Shown: positions 1-53,556 of the stretch, one piece after another
How positions within the stretch are numbered: the stretch's first letter is position 1
Layout: every line of letters begins with the position of its first letter
Assembly (NCBI GenBank): GCA_052327205.1
Contig: CM126203.1
Location: 40,734,001 to 40,798,000, forward strand
Source of the DNA: Somniosus microcephalus
Taxonomy: Eukaryota
Direction: 5' to 3'
DNA: 64,000 bases
The notes under the pieces: generated by a model
Database searches by the model: none
Told to the model about the DNA's origin: nothing
Seen by the model: only the letters and a program-made list of their open reading frames with translations
Program-made: the position numbers and the translations under genes

Positions 1-1131
1 CTTGATTTTTGAAAATTGGTTTTGAGTTATAGGCTTTATTAAATGCTGAAATTTCCATTTAAAATGCGTCTCGTCCTTCATTTTCCCCGTGGGAGTTCCT
101 TGCCACGGCAAACTACTCCAGATAAGGCAACGTTGACTTTTTGGGACTACTGTAATTGATCTATTGATATGGGCTTTTGCTGTATTGATATATTGCGTGT
201 TGCTGCATTTTCAGCATGACTTCCTTTTTCTATCCTGATCCCCCTTCGTCTTGTTCATATATGGCACAATGCCCTGACTTTATTCTGTTAATTTTTTAAA
301 AGTAAATCTGGATATTGTTCTGAAATCCAAGATCATTGGTTCATATTGAATTAACTTGTTATTTAACTGACTTGATTTTCTTGTTACCTTGTGCAGTGTT
401 GGTGTTTATTGCAGGATGTTGAATTTTTCTGGCCCCAACCCACGTCAATTTGTATCTTGATAATTGTTCATGGAGTAGCTGTTTTAATTCTGTCTTAGAT
501 TACAATGTTAAAATGTGGGAGAGGTTACCAAACGGAGAATGGGAGTGGTAAAATCACGTAAGAACATGTTGGCAACAGACTTAAGGCTTGTAGATCAACC
601 AACTCTTGTGTTTTCACAGCTTAATTCTTCACCTGTTCTCTTTCCAGAAAAGTATCTCATTATTTTGTGGATCTATTTTTACTGACTTATTCAGTAGCTT
701 CTCAATCGATGGGGTAATGGCCAAGCTTTATGCAGAAAATCTGTTAATTGAGGTGCTACTGAGCAACATACTTTTACTTCTAAATATCCATGGAGACTTT
801 TTAATTTAAAAAAATGCTAAGGTAAATTTCAGTTAACGTAGAATAGTTTCTTGAGTCTTCCCCTTTCTTGCAGCATGTCTAAATACATTGAAAACACTTG
901 GGTAACTAGGGTTTCTGGCTTCAAAAGGATTTCCTGTCTTTGTTTTTTGCTATTTTATGTTTTCACTAAATCTGCATTGTTGGTCGTTTTACTTGTCTAG
1001 CATTTTTCTTTTATGGGGATGACTTGCATTTCTATAGTTCTTAAGTGCATAGAAACTAGGAGCAGGAGTAGGCCATTCGGCCCCTCGAGCCTGCTCCGCC
1101 ATTCAATGAGATGATGGCTGATCATTCAAAT

Positions 1132-4110
1132 TCAGTACCCTGTCCCTGCCTTCTCCCCATATCCCTTGATCCCTTTAGCCTTAAGAAATATATCCAACTC
1201 CTCCTTGAATATATTTAATGAACTGGCCTCCACCGCCCTCTGGCAGAGAATTCCACAGGTTCACCACTCTCTGGGTGAAGAAATTCCTCCTCATCTCAGT
1301 CCTAAATGGCTTACCCCTTATCCTTAGACTATGGCCCCTGGTTCTGGACTCCCCGGCCATCGGAAACATCCTTCCTGCATCTAGTCTGTCCAGGCCTGAC
1401 AGAATTTTATAGGTTTCGATGAGATTCCCCCCTCTCAATCTTCTAAACTCCAGTGTGTATAAGCCCAGTCGACACAATCTCTCCTCATACATCATTCCTG
1501 CCATCCCAGGTATCAGCCTGGTGAATCTTCGCTGCACTCCTTCCATGGCAAGAATGTCCTTCCTCAGATAAGGCGACCAAAACTGCACACAATACTCAAG
1601 GTGCGGTCTCACCAAGGCCCTGTACAATTGCAGCAAGACATCCTTGTTCCTGTACTCGAACTCTCTTGCTACGAAGGCCAACATACCATTTGCCGCCTTA
1701 ACCGCCTGCTGCACCTGCATGCTTACCTTCAGCGACTGGTGCACAAGAACACCCAGGTCTCTGCACTTCCCCTTCTCCCAGTCTATTGCCATTCAAATAA
1801 TAATCTGCCATCCTGTTTTTGCCACCAAAGTGGGTAACCTCACATTTATCCACATTATAGTGCATTTGCCATGTTTCTGCCCAATCACCCAACCTGTCCA
1901 AATCGTACTGGAGTTTCACGACATCCTCCTAACAGCATACCCTCCCACCCAGCTTTGTGTCGTCTGCAAATTTGGAGATATTACATCCAATTCCCTCGTC
2001 CAGATCATTAATATATATTGTGAACAGCTGGGGTCCTAGGACCGATCCTTGCGGTACCCCACTAGTCACTGTCTGCCACTCGGAAATCGACCCGTTTATT
2101 CCAACTCTTTGCTTTCTATCCGCCAACCAGTTCTCTATCCAAGTCAATACCTTGCCACCAATCCCATGTGCCTTAATTTTGCACGCTAATCTCTTATGCG
2201 GGACCTTATCGAAAGCCTTCTGAAAGTCCAAATACACCACATCCACTGGTTCTCCCTTATCTATTTTACCAGTTACATCCTCAAAAAATTCCAGTAGATT
2301 AGTCAAGCACGATTTACCTTTTGTAAATCCATGTTGACTTTGTCCGATCCTGTCACTGCTTCCCAAGTGCTCTGCTATTACATCTTTTATAATTGACTCT
2401 CGCATTTTCCCCACTACCGATGTCAGGCTTACCCGTCTATAATTCCCCGCTTTTTCTCTACCACCTTTTTTGAATAGTGGGGTAACATTAGCTACCCTCC
2501 AATCCATGGGTACTGTTCCAGAGTCTATCGAGTTCTGGAAGATGACCAGCAATGCATCTACTATTTCTCGGGCCACTTCCTTAAGTACCCTAGGATGTAG
2601 ATTATCAGGCCCAGGGGATTTATCGGCCTTCAGTCCCATCAATTTTCCTAACACCATTTCCCTACAAATACTGATTTCTTTCAGTTCCACCCTTTCATCA
2701 GACCCTATGTTCCCCGGCATCTCTGGGAGGTTATTTGTGTCCTCCTTTGTGAAGACAGCACCAAAATATGTATTTAGTTGGTCGGTCATTTCTTTGTTCC
2801 CCATTATAAATTCCCCTGATTCTGACTGCAAGGGACCTACGCTTGACTTCACCAATCTTTTTCTCTTCACATATCTATAAAAGCTTTCAGTCAATTTTTA
2901 TGTTCCCTGAAGGCTTACTCTCATATTCTATTTTCCCCTTCTTAATTAATCCCTTTGTCCTCCTTTGTTGAATCCTAAACTGCTCCCAATCCTCAGGATT
3001 ATTGGTTTTTCTGGCCAATTTATATGTCCTCTCCTTGGATCTTATGCTATCCCTAATTTCCCTTGTTAGCCAAGGTTGAGTCACCTTTTTTGTTTTATTT
3101 TTATGCCAAACTGGGGTGAACAAATTCTGTAGTTCATCCATTCGGTCTTTGAATGTTTGCCATTGCCTATCCACCATCAACCCTTTTGAGTGACATTCCC
3201 TAATCAATCCTACCCAACTCGCGCCTCAGACCATCGTAGTTTCCTTTATTTAAATTTAGGACCCTAGTCTCTGAGTCAACTACTTCATTCTCCATCTTAA
3301 TGAAGAATTCGATCATATTATGATCACTCCGACCCAAGGGGCCTCTTACAACAAGATTGCTAATTAATCCTTTCTCGTTACATAATACCCAGTCTAAGAT
3401 GGCCTGATCTCTGGTTGGTTCCTCGACATATTGGTCCAGGAAACCATCCCGTAAACACTCCAGGAATTCCTCCTCCACAGTATTGTTACTAATTTGTTTA
3501 GCCCAATCTATATGTAGATTAAAATCACCCATGATGACTGCTGTGCCCTTATTGCACGCTTCTTTAATTTCCCGTTTAATGCCATCCCTAACCTCTGCCT
3601 TACTGTTTGGAGGTCTATATACCACTTCCACTAACGTTTCTGCCCCTTATTATTTCTCAGTTCTACCCATACAGATTCCGCATCATCGGAGCTAATATCC
3701 TTCCTTACAATTGTTAATCCCTTCTTTAACCAGTGATGCTACCCCACCTCCCTTTCCTTTTTGCCTATCTTTCCTGAATATTGAATACCCCTGGATGTTG
3801 AGTTCCCAGCCATGGCCATCCTTGAGCCACGTTTCCGTAATCCCAACCAAATCATATTTGTTTACTTCTATTTACGCAGCTAATTCATCCACCTTATTAC
3901 GAATGCTGCTCGCATTAAGACACAAAGCCTTCAGGCTTGTTTTTTTAACGCTCTTAGACCTATTAGAATTATTATTTACTGTGGTCACGTTTGATTTAAA
4001 CCGTTGATTTCTCTGACTGCCACTTTTGTTTTTCTCCTTCCTATCTTTTGCTTTCATCCTTGTTTCCCTTTCCTCTGTCCCCCTGCTCAGGTTCCCAACC
4101 CCCTGCCATT
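1132..4110 (-). pseudogene. CR1 ORF2 (endonuclease/reverse transcriptase), frameshifted
   Basis: Consecutive ORF-track pieces 3872..4057, 3200..3631, 2887..3207, 1929..2894, 1698..1919 and 1181..1792 carry [51 protein letters not shown] and FADD. Confidence 0.92.
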
Positions 4111-5059
4111 TTAGTTTAAACCTTCCCCCAGAGCACTAGCAAACACTCCCCCTAGGACATCGGTTCCAGCCCTGCCCAGGTGCAAACTGTCCGGTTTGAA
4201 CTGGTCCCACCTCCCCCAGAACCGGTTCCAATGTCCCAGGAACTTGAATCCCTCCCCGTTGCACCATTCCTCTAGCCACGTATTCATCTGAAATATCCTT
4301 CTATTTCTACTCTGACTAGCACGTGGCACTGGTAGCAATCCTGAGATTACTACCTTTTGAGGTCCTATTTTTAAATTTACCTCCTAACTCCCTATATTCT
4401 GCTTTTAGGACCTCATCCCGCTTTTTACCTATATCGTTGGTGCCTATATGCACCACGACAACTGGCTGTTCACCCTCCCCTTCCAAGATGTTCTGCAGCC
4501 GCTCTGAGACATCCTTGACCCTTGCACCAGGGAGGCAACACACCATCCTGGAGTCTCGTTTGCGGCCGCAGAAACGCCTATCTATTCCCCTTACAATAGA
4601 ATCCCCTATTGCTATAGCTCTACCCCTCTTTTTCCTCCCGTCCTGTGCAGCAGAGCCACCCCTGGTGCCAGGAAGTTGGCTTCTGCTGCTTTCCTCTGAT
4701 AAACCATCCCCCCCAAACAGCACTCAGTGGTGTATCTGTTTGAGAGGGATGTCCACAGGGGACCCCTGCACTACCTGCCTGCGCCTAGTACTCTGCCTGT
4801 TAGTCACCCGTTCCCTTTCTGCCTGTCCAACCTCTACCTGCGGTGTGTCCAGCTCCGTAAACGTGCTATTCACGATGTCCCGAGCATCGCGTATGCTCCA
4901 GTATGCATCCAATCGCAGCTCCAGTGCCACAATGCGGTCTGTCAGTAGCTGCAGCTGGATGCACTTCCTGCACATATAGTTGTCAGGGACACAGGAAGTG
5001 TCCCTGTGTTCCCACATATCGCAGGTGGAGCATACCACGTGGTCGGGCTGTCCTGCCAT
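4111..5059 (-). pseudogene. CR1 ORF1 (zinc knuckle/leucine zipper plus SGNH esterase), disrupted
   Basis: CSTCDMW...MCRKCIQLQLL, GDSIVRG, HIGTNDIG and DSLHLG motifs, split by a stop and a frameshift. Confidence 0.9.
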
Positions 5060-5096
5060 GACTTGCCCTTCAATCCCACTAATTACACTACAGTTA

Positions 5097-5418
5097 CAGG
5101 AAACTTTGTGCTATCCGGCAACGACGGGACCGAGCTGTTGCCGTCCCATCAAAACTGCCGGACAAACCAGCGCTAATGTTGAAACATATGGAGATTTTGA
5201 GCTCCGTATCTGGCAACAAACCCAGCTTCGAAACAGTCAGCCGTACCTTGCAAGCGTCTCTGTAGCTTAGCAACAGCTTCAGCGAGACCTTGCAGAGCCT
5301 GACTGGTGGAAGAAAAAAAGCAACGAAAAGAAAAAAAACCTAACGAAACGGCTCCTGATTTTTGCCGGTGGCTTGAGCATTCCGGACAGTTAACCTCCGG
5401 ATAAACCAAAGTTTCCTG
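5097..5418 (+). mobile_element. Tc1/mariner(Tigger)-type MITE family A, copy 1, nested in the CR1 5' UTR
   Basis: TIRs CAGGAAACTTTG...CAAAGTTTCCTG flanked by TA on both sides; homologous to 26022-26339 and 40131-40566. Confidence 0.88.
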
Positions 5419-5599
5419 TAAATGGTTTACCAACAGTCCCCGTTACACCAGAGAGACCTTAGTAACTATAAACCAGAGTTTAAGTTTATAAAGAGAGAAA
5501 TACTCACCAACCAATCACTTACTTGCTTTCTGGTGACGTCACACTTTAATTACTTTTTACTTCTCTCCCTCTGAGCTCGGAGATTGGAGACTGGTACGT

Positions 5600-6073
5600 C
5601 TCACCTGGTCTAGCGCCCTTTTTAAACTGCCGAGTCTCGTGCAGGTCCGCACTGCCGCCTCCGCTGCTGCTGTGGGGCCTCACCTGGTCTGGTGCCCTTT
5701 TTAAACTGCCGAGTCTCGCGCAGGTCCGCACTGCCGCCTCTGCTGCTGCTGTGGGGCCTCACCTGGTCTGGCGCCCTTTTTAAACTGCCGAGTCTCCCGA
5801 GTTGTCTCGCGCAGGTCCGCACTGCCGCCTCCGCTGCTGCTGTGGGGCCTCACCTGGTCTGGCGCCCTTTTTAAACTGCCGAGTCTCGCGCAGGTCCGCA
5901 CTGCCGCCTCCGCTGCTGCTGTGGGGCCTCACGTGGTCTGGCGCCCTTTTTAAACTGCCGAGTCTCCCGAGTTGTCTCGCGCAGGTCCGCACTGCCGCCT
6001 CTGCTGCTGCTGTGGGGCCTCACCTGGTCCGGCGCCCTTTTTAAACTGCCGAGTCTCCCGAGTTGTCTCGCAC
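5600..6073 (-). repeat. GC-rich tandem monomer array (units 79, 79, 91, 79, 91 bp plus a partial unit) at the CR1 5' end
   Basis: Unit starts CTCACCTGG at 5600, 5679, 5758, 5849, 5928 (CTCACGTGG variant) and 6019; 91-bp units carry an extra CCGAGTTGTCTC. Confidence 0.95.
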
Positions 6074-6479
6074 TGCTTTTGCAGGGCAGTGGTAGCGAGT
6101 GGACACCAAGCTGGGATTTACAGGAAAAGAGAAACAGTAATCAATTGTAAAATGAGTAGATTCCACAAATAAAAGGAATTTCATGATACAGTAAAAGGAA
6201 ACCAGCATTTACAGTAATGGTACTGCCTGAAAATATACTGGGAATCATTCAACTTATTCACTTGTCATCAAGAACTGGAGGAACAACTTGAAACAAGAAG
6301 AAAACTTCAAAGTTCTTGCCTATAATACTGGCAGTTTTCTGATTTTTGATTTTATTGGTGTTGCTGAAATAAACACACATGCCAAATTTTCATGTCCTTT
6401 GTATTTTATAGCATAAAACTGAAAATGGGTGGCTGGCTGAGCCTGAAGGCCTTTTCCTGTTGCCAATATGTTCCTACAG

Positions 6480-6990
6480 CATAGACTTGCATAGAAATTA
6501 CAAAATAGAACAAGGCCATTCAGCCCAACCAGTCCATGTTGGTGTTTATACTTCACATGAGCAGTAGTCTTAATCCCATATTCTGCCTGTTTCCCCATAT
6601 CCCTTCATCCCCTTTCCTTCTACCTTTTGAAGCAGAGACCATGTCAACATTTAATCACTAAACTGTGGTAGTGAATTTCACAGCCACACAACCCTCCTTT
6701 TTAAAAAAAAAAAAACATTATTTCTCCTGCTTTCTGCCATAAGTCTCTTACACTTAATCTTTTTTCTATGTCCCCTTGTTCTAGAGCCTTTTTCAAGTCA
6801 CCCTTTGTATTTTAATTCCTTCATACCAGGCATAAATCTAGTGTATCTGCCCTGTACCCCCTCTATTGCCTCAACAACCTTCCTATAGCGTGGAACCCAA
6901 AAGTGGTCTTAGTAAGGTTTTTTTTATAGATTTACCATTACGTATTTACTTTTTTATTCTACAATGCTTGCCATAAAACCCAATATTTCA
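6480..6990 (-). mobile_element. Degraded CR1 3' fragment
   Basis: catagaaatt...ggccattcagcccaac tail and decayed 3' ORF2 sequence. Confidence 0.7.
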
Positions 6991-7119
6991 CACAAGTTCA
7001 CATGTCAGTTGTTAAAGCACAACATTACTACTATCCACTAACTGAACATATGTCCTGGCTTGATGTATAAAACTGAACTAGCAAGATTAATTTTGTGTAC
7101 TACTTGTTGTTCTCCCTTT

Positions 7120-7460
7120 CTTTCCTGAAGGCACTTACTCCTTGGGACACGGGAGGTAGCTGTACCTTGCCCAAGTGGACATTATTCATGTGTGGTCCTT
7201 AGCCGTGGGTATAAGCAGGCTGATCCTGTCCTCTCCAAATGTCCATGTGCATGCATTTGCAATGGGGGTTGCTACATGTCCACCTCGAGCAACAAACCGA
7301 GTGTCAATTCTCCCCCCCCCGCCAACACCTTTCTAACCCAGAGATGTTGACTCCAGTTGTAGCTCACTAGCACTGCTCTCACTGTTACGAGATAACTGCA
7401 CAGGTCAGTGACTGAACTTGGGACTTTCCACGTCTGTGGTCCAGCTGCTCAATAGATGCG
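7120..7460 (-). mobile_element. Ancient tRNA-derived SINE-like repeat; related decayed copies near 8790, 13790, 24330, 29500, 42510, 43140, 47570, 48990, 51740, 52930 and 63110
   Basis: Recurrent decayed motif of the type ctgagccata..gaccaggaaggtcccaggtt..atc..tggtctgtgctgagttagctg on either strand. Confidence 0.55.
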
Positions 7461-7729
7461 CTAGTTGAGGAATTGGTGGCGCTAAGTTACTGATGTGTGC
7501 CAGTATTTTACTAATTTCATATATAGTGCAATGCAAGCTACTTATAGCAGGCTTGTTTATATGTAGCTCATTTATCTGAAATGAGTGGCAGTTCAGTATG
7601 TTCCTACAAAGTAATATCTGGGTTTTTGTCGTTGTCTCCCTGTCCTGAATGATTTTAGAACTGCTTGTTCCACTTTTGTATTTAAGCAGACAGACTTTGT
7701 TTTGATTTTTAAGGTCAGTGGCTCTGCAA

Positions 7730-8270
7730 TAACTACAAGAAGTATTTATATAGCGCCTGTAACGTAGTAAAACGTCCCAACGCGCTTCACAGGAGTGTTA
7801 CAAGACAAAAAATTTGACACGAGCCACATGAGATATTGGGGCAGATGACCAAAAGCTTGGTCAGAGAGGTAGATTTTAAGGAGTGTCTTAAAGGAGGAAA
7901 GAGAGGTAGAGATGCGGAGAGGTTTAGGGAGGAAATCCCTGAGCTTAGGGCCTAGGCAGTTAAAGGCATAGCCACCAATGGTTGAGCGATTAAAATCAGG
8001 GATGCTCAAGAGGGCAGAATTAGGAGTGTAGAGATATCGCTGGGGGTGGGTTGTGGGGCTGGAAGAGATTTCAGAGAGGGGTGAGGCCATGGAGCGATTT
8101 GAAAACAAGGATGAGAATTTTAAAATCGAGGAGTTGCTTAACTGGGAGCCAATGAAGGTCAGTGAGCACAGGGGTGATGGGTGAATGAGACTTGGTGTGA
8201 GTTAGGACACAGGCAGCATAGTTTTGGAATACCTCAAGTTTACATGGGGTAGAACGTGGGAGGCCAGCCA
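7730..8270 (-). mobile_element. L2-clade LINE 3' fragment
   Basis: ORFs with SPITPVLTDLHWLPV..FKILILVFK and FKTLLKIYL, typical of the L2 ORF2 C-terminus; tail tttatatagcgcct. Confidence 0.85.
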
Positions 8271-8666
8271 ATCATTTAAGATGGTGGGGAAAAGTAGTAT
8301 GGCATTCAGCTGATCCTTCTGGTGTACTAAAGTGATCGTACGGCGGAGTCCATTGTACAAGTGGAAGATACGCAGAAGTGGAATTTACAAATAAGTTTTG
8401 TGTACAATTTTACAGCAATTATCCAAAATTAATTTGTTGCAATGTACTCTAATCGTTTGATTAAATCAACATCCATATCTGTTGTAGCAGTGGACTTGTG
8501 ATTGAACTCTATTGCTTTGGCTTGGCATTAGAGTTTCTGTCTGCTGTATTCCGTCATCCACCATATGTAAGTCCAGTTGGAGCTGCCGAAAGTTGTGGAG
8601 CTTCCTGATGGTTCTGTAACTATTTGCACTACCAAGTGCAGAATCCAGCAGTAAAGACTAGGATCT

Positions 8667-8752
8667 GTTCTGAGGAAACATCAACCTGTCTTTTCTCTGC
8701 AGATATTGACTGACTGACTGCTATGCATTTCCAGCATTTTCTATTTTTATTT
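8667..8752 (+). mobile_element. Degraded Penelope-type short repeat (hammerhead core broken)
   Basis: gttctgag-gaaacatcaac...tttccagcattttctatttttattt resembles the copies at 15156 and 52277. Confidence 0.55.
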
Positions 8753-10277
8753 AAAATTTGAAGTTTTTTTTTTAATGACTTTTGCTCGGCTTAATATCTG
8801 ATCTGTGCTAAATTTGCAGGACAGTAGTAGAGGTGCTATAATTGGCTTCAGCACCTTTGGGTTGGGAGTGGAGGATACAAAGCTGCTCCCCCCAGAAGAG
8901 TGAGCAGGTAGCTCACATATGTGATGAGCCTATTTAATTTTGTTTGTGGATACTGCTCTCCTTTCATTGGTCAATAACTAACTAACTCGGGTTGAATTTA
9001 GCTTTGCATCACTGTGCTATCTTTGGTTCTCCCCAAAAGGAAGCGATTCTCCCAGCAGGTAGATATTTCTAATATTAAAAAAAAAGCCTTATGCTGTGTA
9101 ATCTGAAGAGTACAGTTAATGGAAAGTACTTTTACCCCCCCAAGAAGATCAAGAATATTCTTACCGACAGCTTTTTAAAAAACTTCCATTATGTGTCCAT
9201 GTAGGTTGACAGTTACTTTTGAAGCATGGTTTAGCTGTACTCAATGAGAGTGAAATCCCTCAATGCTGTTGTGATTTCATTATTACTAAACAGTATGGCT
9301 AAGCTCTCCTATTATGAAACTATTAATGAGTAGCAGTAATGAGGCAGATAGTGTATTCTATTGTTGAAGCATACAGGATCCTCTCCCCTGATGACCTAAT
9401 GGATGAAAGCACCACCTGCTGTAGCGCTGAGCCAAATGGACTAGACGCTTTCTGATTGAGGGAAAAAGGAGGAAGATAAAAATAATGCCAGTCGGGAATC
9501 TTAAAAGTGCTTTGTTACACATTTTTCTGTTCATTTTGGAGGTTATAAATTCCTCCTGACAAGGAGTTACCCAGAATCACTGAATAATAACTAATTGTCT
9601 AGTAGTTCACAAGTCACTTGCTTTCCTGCCTCTTCAGTTGTCTGTATATTTAAAGATTTTGGAGAATTAACCCAATGGAGAGATCAGGACGGTTTCACTG
9701 GAAGAAACACTAATTTGAAGGATTTTTTATTTATAACAGTGTTCTTGATTTTCACCTGCTGATGAAGGCTATTGTGATTTGTCAGATTCTCATGAGATCA
9801 TTACTGTTTGCAGTGAGCGGTTACCATACTAATGTTGCAGTTCGAAGGAAGCTACTTTAATACAAAATATAGTCTTGTTAAAATTAGGTCTCTTAGCACT
9901 GATGCGTGCAATAGTAATTCTGATTTTTCTCCAAAAGACACTTAAATTCGTTCAGGCTTGATCAGGTACTTTGCAGGTGGTATAATTAATTCTTTTCCCT
10001 CGTCATTCCTCACTCAGTGGTGCCCATCCAGAGGAGGTGGAGGCAATATAATTCTCGAAAGGAAGGAATTGAAGATCACTTTTTCTTATCTAGCAGTGGA
10101 TTTAAGAGTGGCAGAAACCCGAGAGAAGGTTGCTGGATGGCTGACTCTGTGGGAAAACTGTTGACATTTGAGAAATCTTAAGTTGTGGAAAAATAACTTA
10201 CTGGGTCTGGGAAAATTGGAAGAAATAAATCATTAGAAAAACTGAATTCTAGTAAGTTTTTCCAATCCAAATGATAG

Positions 10278-53556
<43,279 letters not shown>

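Follow-up and report, generated by a model that had tools for sequence, protein, structure and literature searches.

In this work we analysed a window of 64,000 nucleotides from Somniosus microcephalus (contig CM126203.1, positions 40,734,001 to 40,798,000, forward strand), in which a CR1 LINE begins with a tandem array of short units. Comparison of this array with those of other copies in the genome makes it likely that the array is the 5' module of the element and that each unit is a complete pol II core promoter, whose TATA box would start a capped transcript about 31 nt downstream. The arguments for this are the linkage of the array to CR1 5' ends, its variable number of units, the phasing of the 5' ends, a conserved strand-specific box and local duplication of units; one point against it is that the box of the window subfamily, TTTAAAAA, is non-canonical. 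A wider proposition, which we hold probable but with less assurance, concerns the whole clade, whose UTR core is intact in at least 2,000 copies of this genome: stacked TATA-initiator promoters would be burned at a rate of at least one unit per round and regrown by duplication, and the unit sequence would have been replaced at least eight times with only the TATA-to-start geometry kept, so that promoter turnover would be visible in a LINE from outside the mammals.

In the cycle that we propose, the box of a given unit would start a capped RNA at the initiator downstream of it. Transcription would begin past the fired box, which would be missing from the RNA and hence from the new genomic copy; only the boxes farther downstream would be retained. 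A lineage would thereby lose at least one unit per copying cycle, lost units would be regained through duplication, and over time whole monomer types would be swapped ahead of the constant UTR core while the box-to-start spacing is kept.

A CR1 element antisense to NAA15 carries the array

The array belongs to a full-length but broken CR1 LINE (1047..6076, minus strand) that retains esterase, endonuclease and reverse transcriptase (RT) remnants. CR1 elements end at the 3' side in short tandem repeats, not in poly-A, and usually lack a target-site duplication. In the 71 copies whose 3' end could be mapped, the tail consists of TTCTATG-type repeats, and a target-site duplication was sought for the window copy and none was found. 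The ORF1 remnant (4110..5059, minus strand) is frameshifted and is composed of a Cys-rich N-terminal part and a GDSL esterase; its match to PF13472 (E 6.5e-05, 23.9 bits) is that of a frameshifted fragment and is under the curated cut-off. The ORF2 remnant (1181..3955, minus strand), which contains stops and frameshifts, matches the endonuclease family PF14529 (E 1.6e-10) and the RT family PF00078 (E 3.2e-26). An esterase-type ORF1 is named as a CR1 feature in the available part of PMC13343379. The element is assigned to CR1, as opposed to L2, on its architecture and on what is known of these groups.

The window copy is 89-96% identical to sister copies across blocks of ORF1 and ORF2, and its UTR differs from theirs by a 28-nt deletion and by an extra inverted-repeat insertion of ~325 bp. 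This MITE-like insertion (5093..5421, no strand assigned), bounded by inverted repeats, is missing from the sister copies. It recurs at 40127-40570 in a copy that has a 114-bp tandem duplication, and its ends carry ACAGGAAACTTTG in opposite orientation; both CR1 copies of the window thus contain it, the second CR1 (37100-41490, minus strand) being more diverged, likewise antisense to NAA15, beginning within ORF1 and having no 5' array. DNA contigs from a public run, which may be the source sample, span both junctions between the array-bearing element and its flanks, so the CR1 insertion is no assembly artefact.

The host gene was recognised from an exon (11602..11757, plus strand) identical to residues 83-134 of a PDB NAA15 chain, with further exon-like frames downstream, which places the CR1 antisense to NAA15. 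No earlier NAA15 exon was recognised in positions 1 to 10,300, and the CR1 is presumably intronic. The window copy is dead as a retrotransposon, and nothing indicates an effect of it on NAA15.

Organization of the array

In element order, the array (5600..6076, minus strand) is composed of a truncated outer unit, five full units of 91, 79, 91, 79 and 79 bp (measured by anchor spacing) and a terminal part-unit. The sequence GGCAGTTTAAAAAGGG, used as anchor, recurs at six minus-strand positions, 6050, 5959, 5880, 5789, 5710 and 5631, in agreement with the initial annotation, which had described, in plus-strand order, five full units of 79, 79, 91, 79 and 91 bp plus a partial one, passing directly into the CR1 5' UTR as we also find at the locus. 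TRF scores the array 651 at period 79 and 806 at period 170 (97% matches); its GC content is 65% and its CpG observed/expected ratio 0.80.

The first TATA-like box, TTTAAAAA (6038..6045, minus strand), has one mismatch to TATAWAAR, the TATA consensus used for scoring, and the five remaining boxes start at 5954, 5875, 5784, 5705 and 5626 on the same strand. The first initiator-like site, CCCACAG (6010..6016, minus strand), owes its presumed function to the clustering of sister-copy 5' ends there; the predicted +1 A of this unit is 6013, 32 nt past the first T of TTTAAAAA, the other predicted +1 A positions are 5922, 5843, 5752 and 5673 (minus strand), and the terminal unit of the window array is without an initiator-like site. 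Between the TATA-like box and the initiator lies a word that resembles both a splice donor and an E-box, CAG|GTGAG (6019..6026, and also 5856, 5765, 5686 and 5607, minus strand). CAGGTGAG is found in five units, and in one unit CACGTG, at 5935, differs by a single base change from the E-box word of the others. All the motifs named at the outset (TATA-like box, CAGGTG, CACGTG, GTGACGTCAC, CCAAT and donor words) could be located, the CCAAT at 5511 being on the plus strand and reading ATTGG in element sense. Since the outermost unit is cut ~33 nt past the initiator A, the window locus alone does not display a start site.

The monomer is a 5' module of the CR1 family

A search of the 6.4-Gb genome with one unit returned 170 matches, from which 40 places among 118 candidates were scored. 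At 37 of the 39 array loci other than the window, the array continues straight into the same CR1 5' UTR and ORF1. In one exception a few shared letters link it to the 3' portion of ORF2 (an internal deletion), and in the other a different element breaks it directly after the UTR junction; linkage to CR1 5' ends amounts to 38/39 loci when this interrupted locus is included. The interrupting element, at L050, carries TATAAAAG and looks LTR-like.

The pattern of the array-UTR junction has 120 exact matches in the genome. A set of 113 loci of the window's own monomer type was assembled from the window, the 39 monomer places, 60 junction matches of the 100 listed and 13 loci from UTR searches; the UTR was found in 111 of them, and the 5' end was mappable in 109. 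These 109 copies have from 0 to 14 full units (none in 19 copies, one in 25, two in 21), and two arrays, longer still, extended beyond the sequence retrieved. The monomer is thus not confined to one locus, its matches lying at the 5' ends of the same CR1 subfamily, and the proposal of a family-wide 5' module of variable copy number, made from the window alone, holds.

Shared variants point to local duplication of units. The 12-bp variant behind the 91-bp units has three exact matches in the genome, all at the window locus and in three units, which implies that these units were duplicated after the variant arose, either there or in a source element with no other surviving copy. Across 208 units from 44 loci, 7 of 56 locus-private variants occur in several units, frequently at a distance of two units, whereas shuffling of the labels gives 0.56 on average and 3 at most; at one locus the same donor change is present in three adjacent units, and units diverge by 7% within a locus vs 17% between loci. 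The 12-bp variant and the 7 shared private variants support the regrowth by duplication implied by the earlier idea of a self-regenerating array. The 49 other private variants are confined to single units, indicating that most units are older than their mutations. Regrowth would take place either in DNA or during cDNA synthesis, and the two-unit steps favour unequal exchange or slippage.

The 5' ends of genomic copies are phased within the unit

In the own-type set, 67 of the 109 5' ends lie within -4..+9 of the initiator A (CCCACAG or CTCAGAG), compared with 16% of 599 simulated random truncations treated by the same pipeline (P 1e-26). The proportion is similar in the three locus sets (24/38, 35/59 and 8/12), and the counts include a few miscalls, such as L042, which is the edge of a nested insertion, and L160, which stopped early. 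Exact +1 starts number 21/109 vs about 2 expected. The base before them is G in 13 of 21 cases (30% expected, P 0.002), and in 3 of 23 for starts at phases of 10 or more. A G ahead of +1 is what a reverse-transcribed cap would leave, an indirect sign of capping; target-site duplications are mostly absent (4/71 copies exceed the null maximum, one of the four in a GT microsatellite), so this G cannot be proven untemplated by the target. The ends that fall outside the -4..+9 interval number 42/109, and many ends lie 1-12 nt downstream of +1 within a CAG/GCG triplet run, where the alignment is fuzzy.

One box-to-start spacing recurs in seven of eight monomer groups

The UTR core around the CRE is common to many subfamilies that carry other monomers, and a 28-letter degenerate pattern of this core has 2,012 exact matches in the genome. 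A wider-clade set was chosen by UTR core alone and comprises 90 of the first 100 core matches listed (the last five and five already obtained were excluded); one of its loci also belongs to the first set. An array is present in 67 of the 90 copies, and most of the remaining copies have one part-unit. The 67 units form eight groups, with periods of 46 to 111 bp, that are mutually without local similarity at the threshold used and may be related by remote common descent. TATAWAAR with at most one mismatch is found in 39/67 units, where shuffled sequences give 1.4 and the antisense strand gives none, and 28/67 units have two or more mismatches.

The 5' end could be mapped relative to the box in 74 of the 90 loci, leaving out 4 without a box by the pattern used, 1 that ran off and 11 with low scores. 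With the TATA register set post hoc, after the units had been inspected, 35 of these ends fall 28-35 nt downstream of the box (null 9.8%), and the peak at 30-33 nt contains 25/74 vs 4.3 expected. After three copies with identical flanks were dropped, 32/71 ends are at 28-35 nt (P 2e-14), a count that still includes a fourth identical-flank copy (L280) and scores some walks stopped within arrays as misses. By eye, only 4/90 copies start downstream of the last box, which is consistent with the absence of the initiator word from most terminal units. The canonical distance from TATA box to initiator is about 30-31 nt, and the peak of ends at 30-33 nt is as a TATA-Inr core would give. The TATA-like box noticed in the window is a conserved element that predicts where copies begin.

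These ends are also to be judged against the main rival, an internal, downstream-type promoter as in mouse L1, made of an initiator and GC-rich downstream sites or of a CRE/CCAAT core acting at a distance, the A/T island being incidental and kept by descent. We consider this unlikely, though it accounts for several features: mouse monomers have phased 5' ends without TATA boxes (available parts of PMC6454616 and PMC7778262), +1 coincides with an initiator-like word, conservation is highest in the UTR core and the subfamily box has one mismatch. However, the spacing of 28-33 nt recurs in 7/8 groups whose sequences do not align (the sole copy of the 47-bp group starts at 14), the box is strand-specific and far above shuffles, and TATAAAAG with no mismatch occurs in 7/67 units belonging to several monomer types. 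It is highly unlikely that the pile-up of ends reflects stalling of RT or microhomology joining at the CAG/GCG triplet run. Many ends do lie within this run, and 5' truncation of LINEs via microhomology is common (PMC3287187, in the part available), but the distribution has a sharp upstream edge, with 0/71 ends at 19-27 nt past the box, the same distance is observed in types without the triplet run (46-, 77- and 80-bp), the G excess is at +1 only, and simulation via the same pipeline gives no pile-up. A functionless minisatellite grown at the CR1 5' end is the least credible explanation, since its GC-rich units, triplet-length variation and local duplications are offset by the restriction of the array to CR1 5' ends in 38/39 loci and by its repeated replacement by other units that retain a TATA-like box in register. 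We thus prefer to regard the units as putative core promoters in which the TATA-like box sets the start.

The UTR core, donor-like words and RNA reads

The conserved core of the UTR, found clade-wide (5500..5560 in the window, minus strand), contains an A-run, the CRE GTGACGTCAC (5533-5542, minus strand), a donor-like GTAAGT, ATTGG and a donor-like GTGAGT; the two donor-like words are AAGTAAGT at 5524 and TGGTGAGT at 5509 (minus strand). The AA|GTAAGT of the window is a mutated version of the family's CAG|GTAAGT, and the two donors and ATTGG are retained in 78, 79 and 80 of the 90 wider-clade copies, across monomer types. The family UTR (window equivalent 5060-5530) has four donor-like words conserved across subfamilies, two of which are lost in the window copy, and one such word directly precedes the ORF1 start codon.

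The initial annotation had pointed to an E-box in the units and to a possibly spliced 5' UTR, and neither a functional E-box nor splicing is supported. In the wider clade CAGGTG is present in 2/67 units and CAGGTA in 37/67, AGGT(A/G) is missing from 21 units and any CANNTG is found in only 4/67, a lack of conservation that leads us to reject a functional E-box; the CACGTG of the window, as described above, is a one-base variant of one unit. As for splicing, a GT..AG deletion was found in 0/104 aligned UTRs, and loci with a changed base after a donor yielded no spliced copy among 30 read (of 150), 11 of 11 and 30 read (of 56), these 71 loci being point mutants, short slips, insertions or chance matches. 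One predicted splice junction had 0 matches, and the two RNA runs described below showed no GT..AG joint among those listed, with 23 weaker joints outside that list. The search is blind to the loss of whole units between identical CAG|GT sites. Use of the monomer or UTR donors for splicing is rejected, as no precise GT..AG removal was found in the genomic copies searched, and our guess is that the conserved UTR donors might recruit U1 without splicing.

The two raw RNA runs were chosen by species label only, and their library strand was not calibrated. At a sister locus (L134), with reads matched at 85% identity, depth is 2-16 per direction on the monomers vs 150-650 on the UTR core. Six molecules from one run start there one base before the initiator A; their number is small, and they are confounded by read-through from copies ending at this position. 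In the first 14,000 nucleotides of the window (1-14000), at 98% identity, RNA depth is zero over the array, but the NAA15 exon at 11.6 kb is almost uncovered as well, and the zero therefore carries no information on antisense transcription.

Comparison with known promoter modules

LINEs are taught to need internal TATA-less promoters, since sequence upstream of the start is lost on copying. If our reading is correct, a TATA-driven tandem array would be a second solution to this loss, one in which the start is fixed and the units lost in each cycle can be counted. The genome would then contain thousands of scattered compact GC-rich core promoters, some of them intronic as in NAA15, and rapid turnover of 5' ends would not be limited to mammalian L1. 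The maintenance of monomer arrays, an open question in mouse (PMC6454616, available part), would become testable on thousands of copies.

The closest known layout is that of the mouse L1Md A, Gf and Tf subfamilies, whose monomer promoters are followed by a tether (PMC6454616, PMC7778262, PMC5381506; available parts of each). As in these elements, tandem 5' units of variable number precede a constant linker, the 5' ends of genomic copies show phasing relative to the unit and are interpreted as start sites, and unit types are replaced over time, with expansion via duplication. The likeness described here is one of layout; the shark elements belong to a different LINE clade. As far as these sources go, mouse units are also longer (~200 bp vs 46-111 bp in the shark CR1 clade), and mouse starts lie near YY1 or AP-1 sites, whereas the CR1 ends lie 28-35 nt after a TATA-like box. 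L1 regulatory regions are described, in the available text of PMC7778262, as being without TATA boxes; the presence of a TATA-like box upstream of the CR1 ends sets them apart from the TATA-less starts of an L1Md-type promoter. The monomer-promoter layout is thus known from mouse, and the upstream TATA-Inr core is likely a variant of it.

The A-module of the Dictyostelium element TRE5-A is tandemly repeated and has the character of an internal promoter. In the available part of PMC3159450 it is 200 bp long, lies at the 5' end of a non-LTR element and has promoter activity; the CR1 array resembles it in being a 5' module on a non-LTR element and differs in size.

Within CR1, the 5' UTR of chicken CR1-B acts as a promoter in a reporter assay, E-boxes are a named feature of it, UTRs vary by subfamily, and turtle and pufferfish CR1 are said to contain a 32-bp direct repeat (available text of PMC2734521). 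The shark clade shares with these elements the CR1 affiliation and subfamily-specific 5' UTRs, but unlike in chicken CR1-B the E-boxes are not conserved; the same portion of that paper has 0 matches for TATA and describes no long array. CR1-group elements without ORF1, ORF1(-), have 1-5 repeated subunits of 100-500 bp near the 5' UTR (PMC13343379, 2026), for which the available text proposes no function, with 0 matches for promoter, TATA or monomer. In contrast with these ORF1(-) elements, the shark elements have an ORF1 of esterase type, and their arrays can reach 17 units or more. The literature consulted holds no account of TATA-bearing tandem 5' monomers in CR1, and Repbase, Dfam, subscription papers or supplements may hold one.

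Additional observations on individual loci

Very long arrays are found at L079, L132, L283, L311 and L271. Among them are arrays of at least 17 units of 90 bp, at two loci where the array extends beyond the sequence retrieved, and others of 12 units of 72-79 bp, 12 of 111 bp and 17 of 46 bp. An identical 5' flank is found at different places of contig C1 for L254, L257, L263 and L280, and also for L235 and L236, which indicates that the CR1 was multiplied inside a larger repeat or duplication. At L137, L239, L271 and L292 the UTR core is kept and a different ORF1 start follows, which suggests recombination between CR1 lineages at the core. Finally, L259 and L260 (G000 C1, about 66.70 and 67.90 Mb), which are identical across 1,400 nt, carry an apparent promoter of host type, with two CCAAT boxes, ACTTCCGG and GTCACGTG, ahead of one TATA-bearing part-unit of CR1; the CR1 may have inserted into a promoter, a host promoter may drive a source element, or the arrangement may point to the origin of the monomer.
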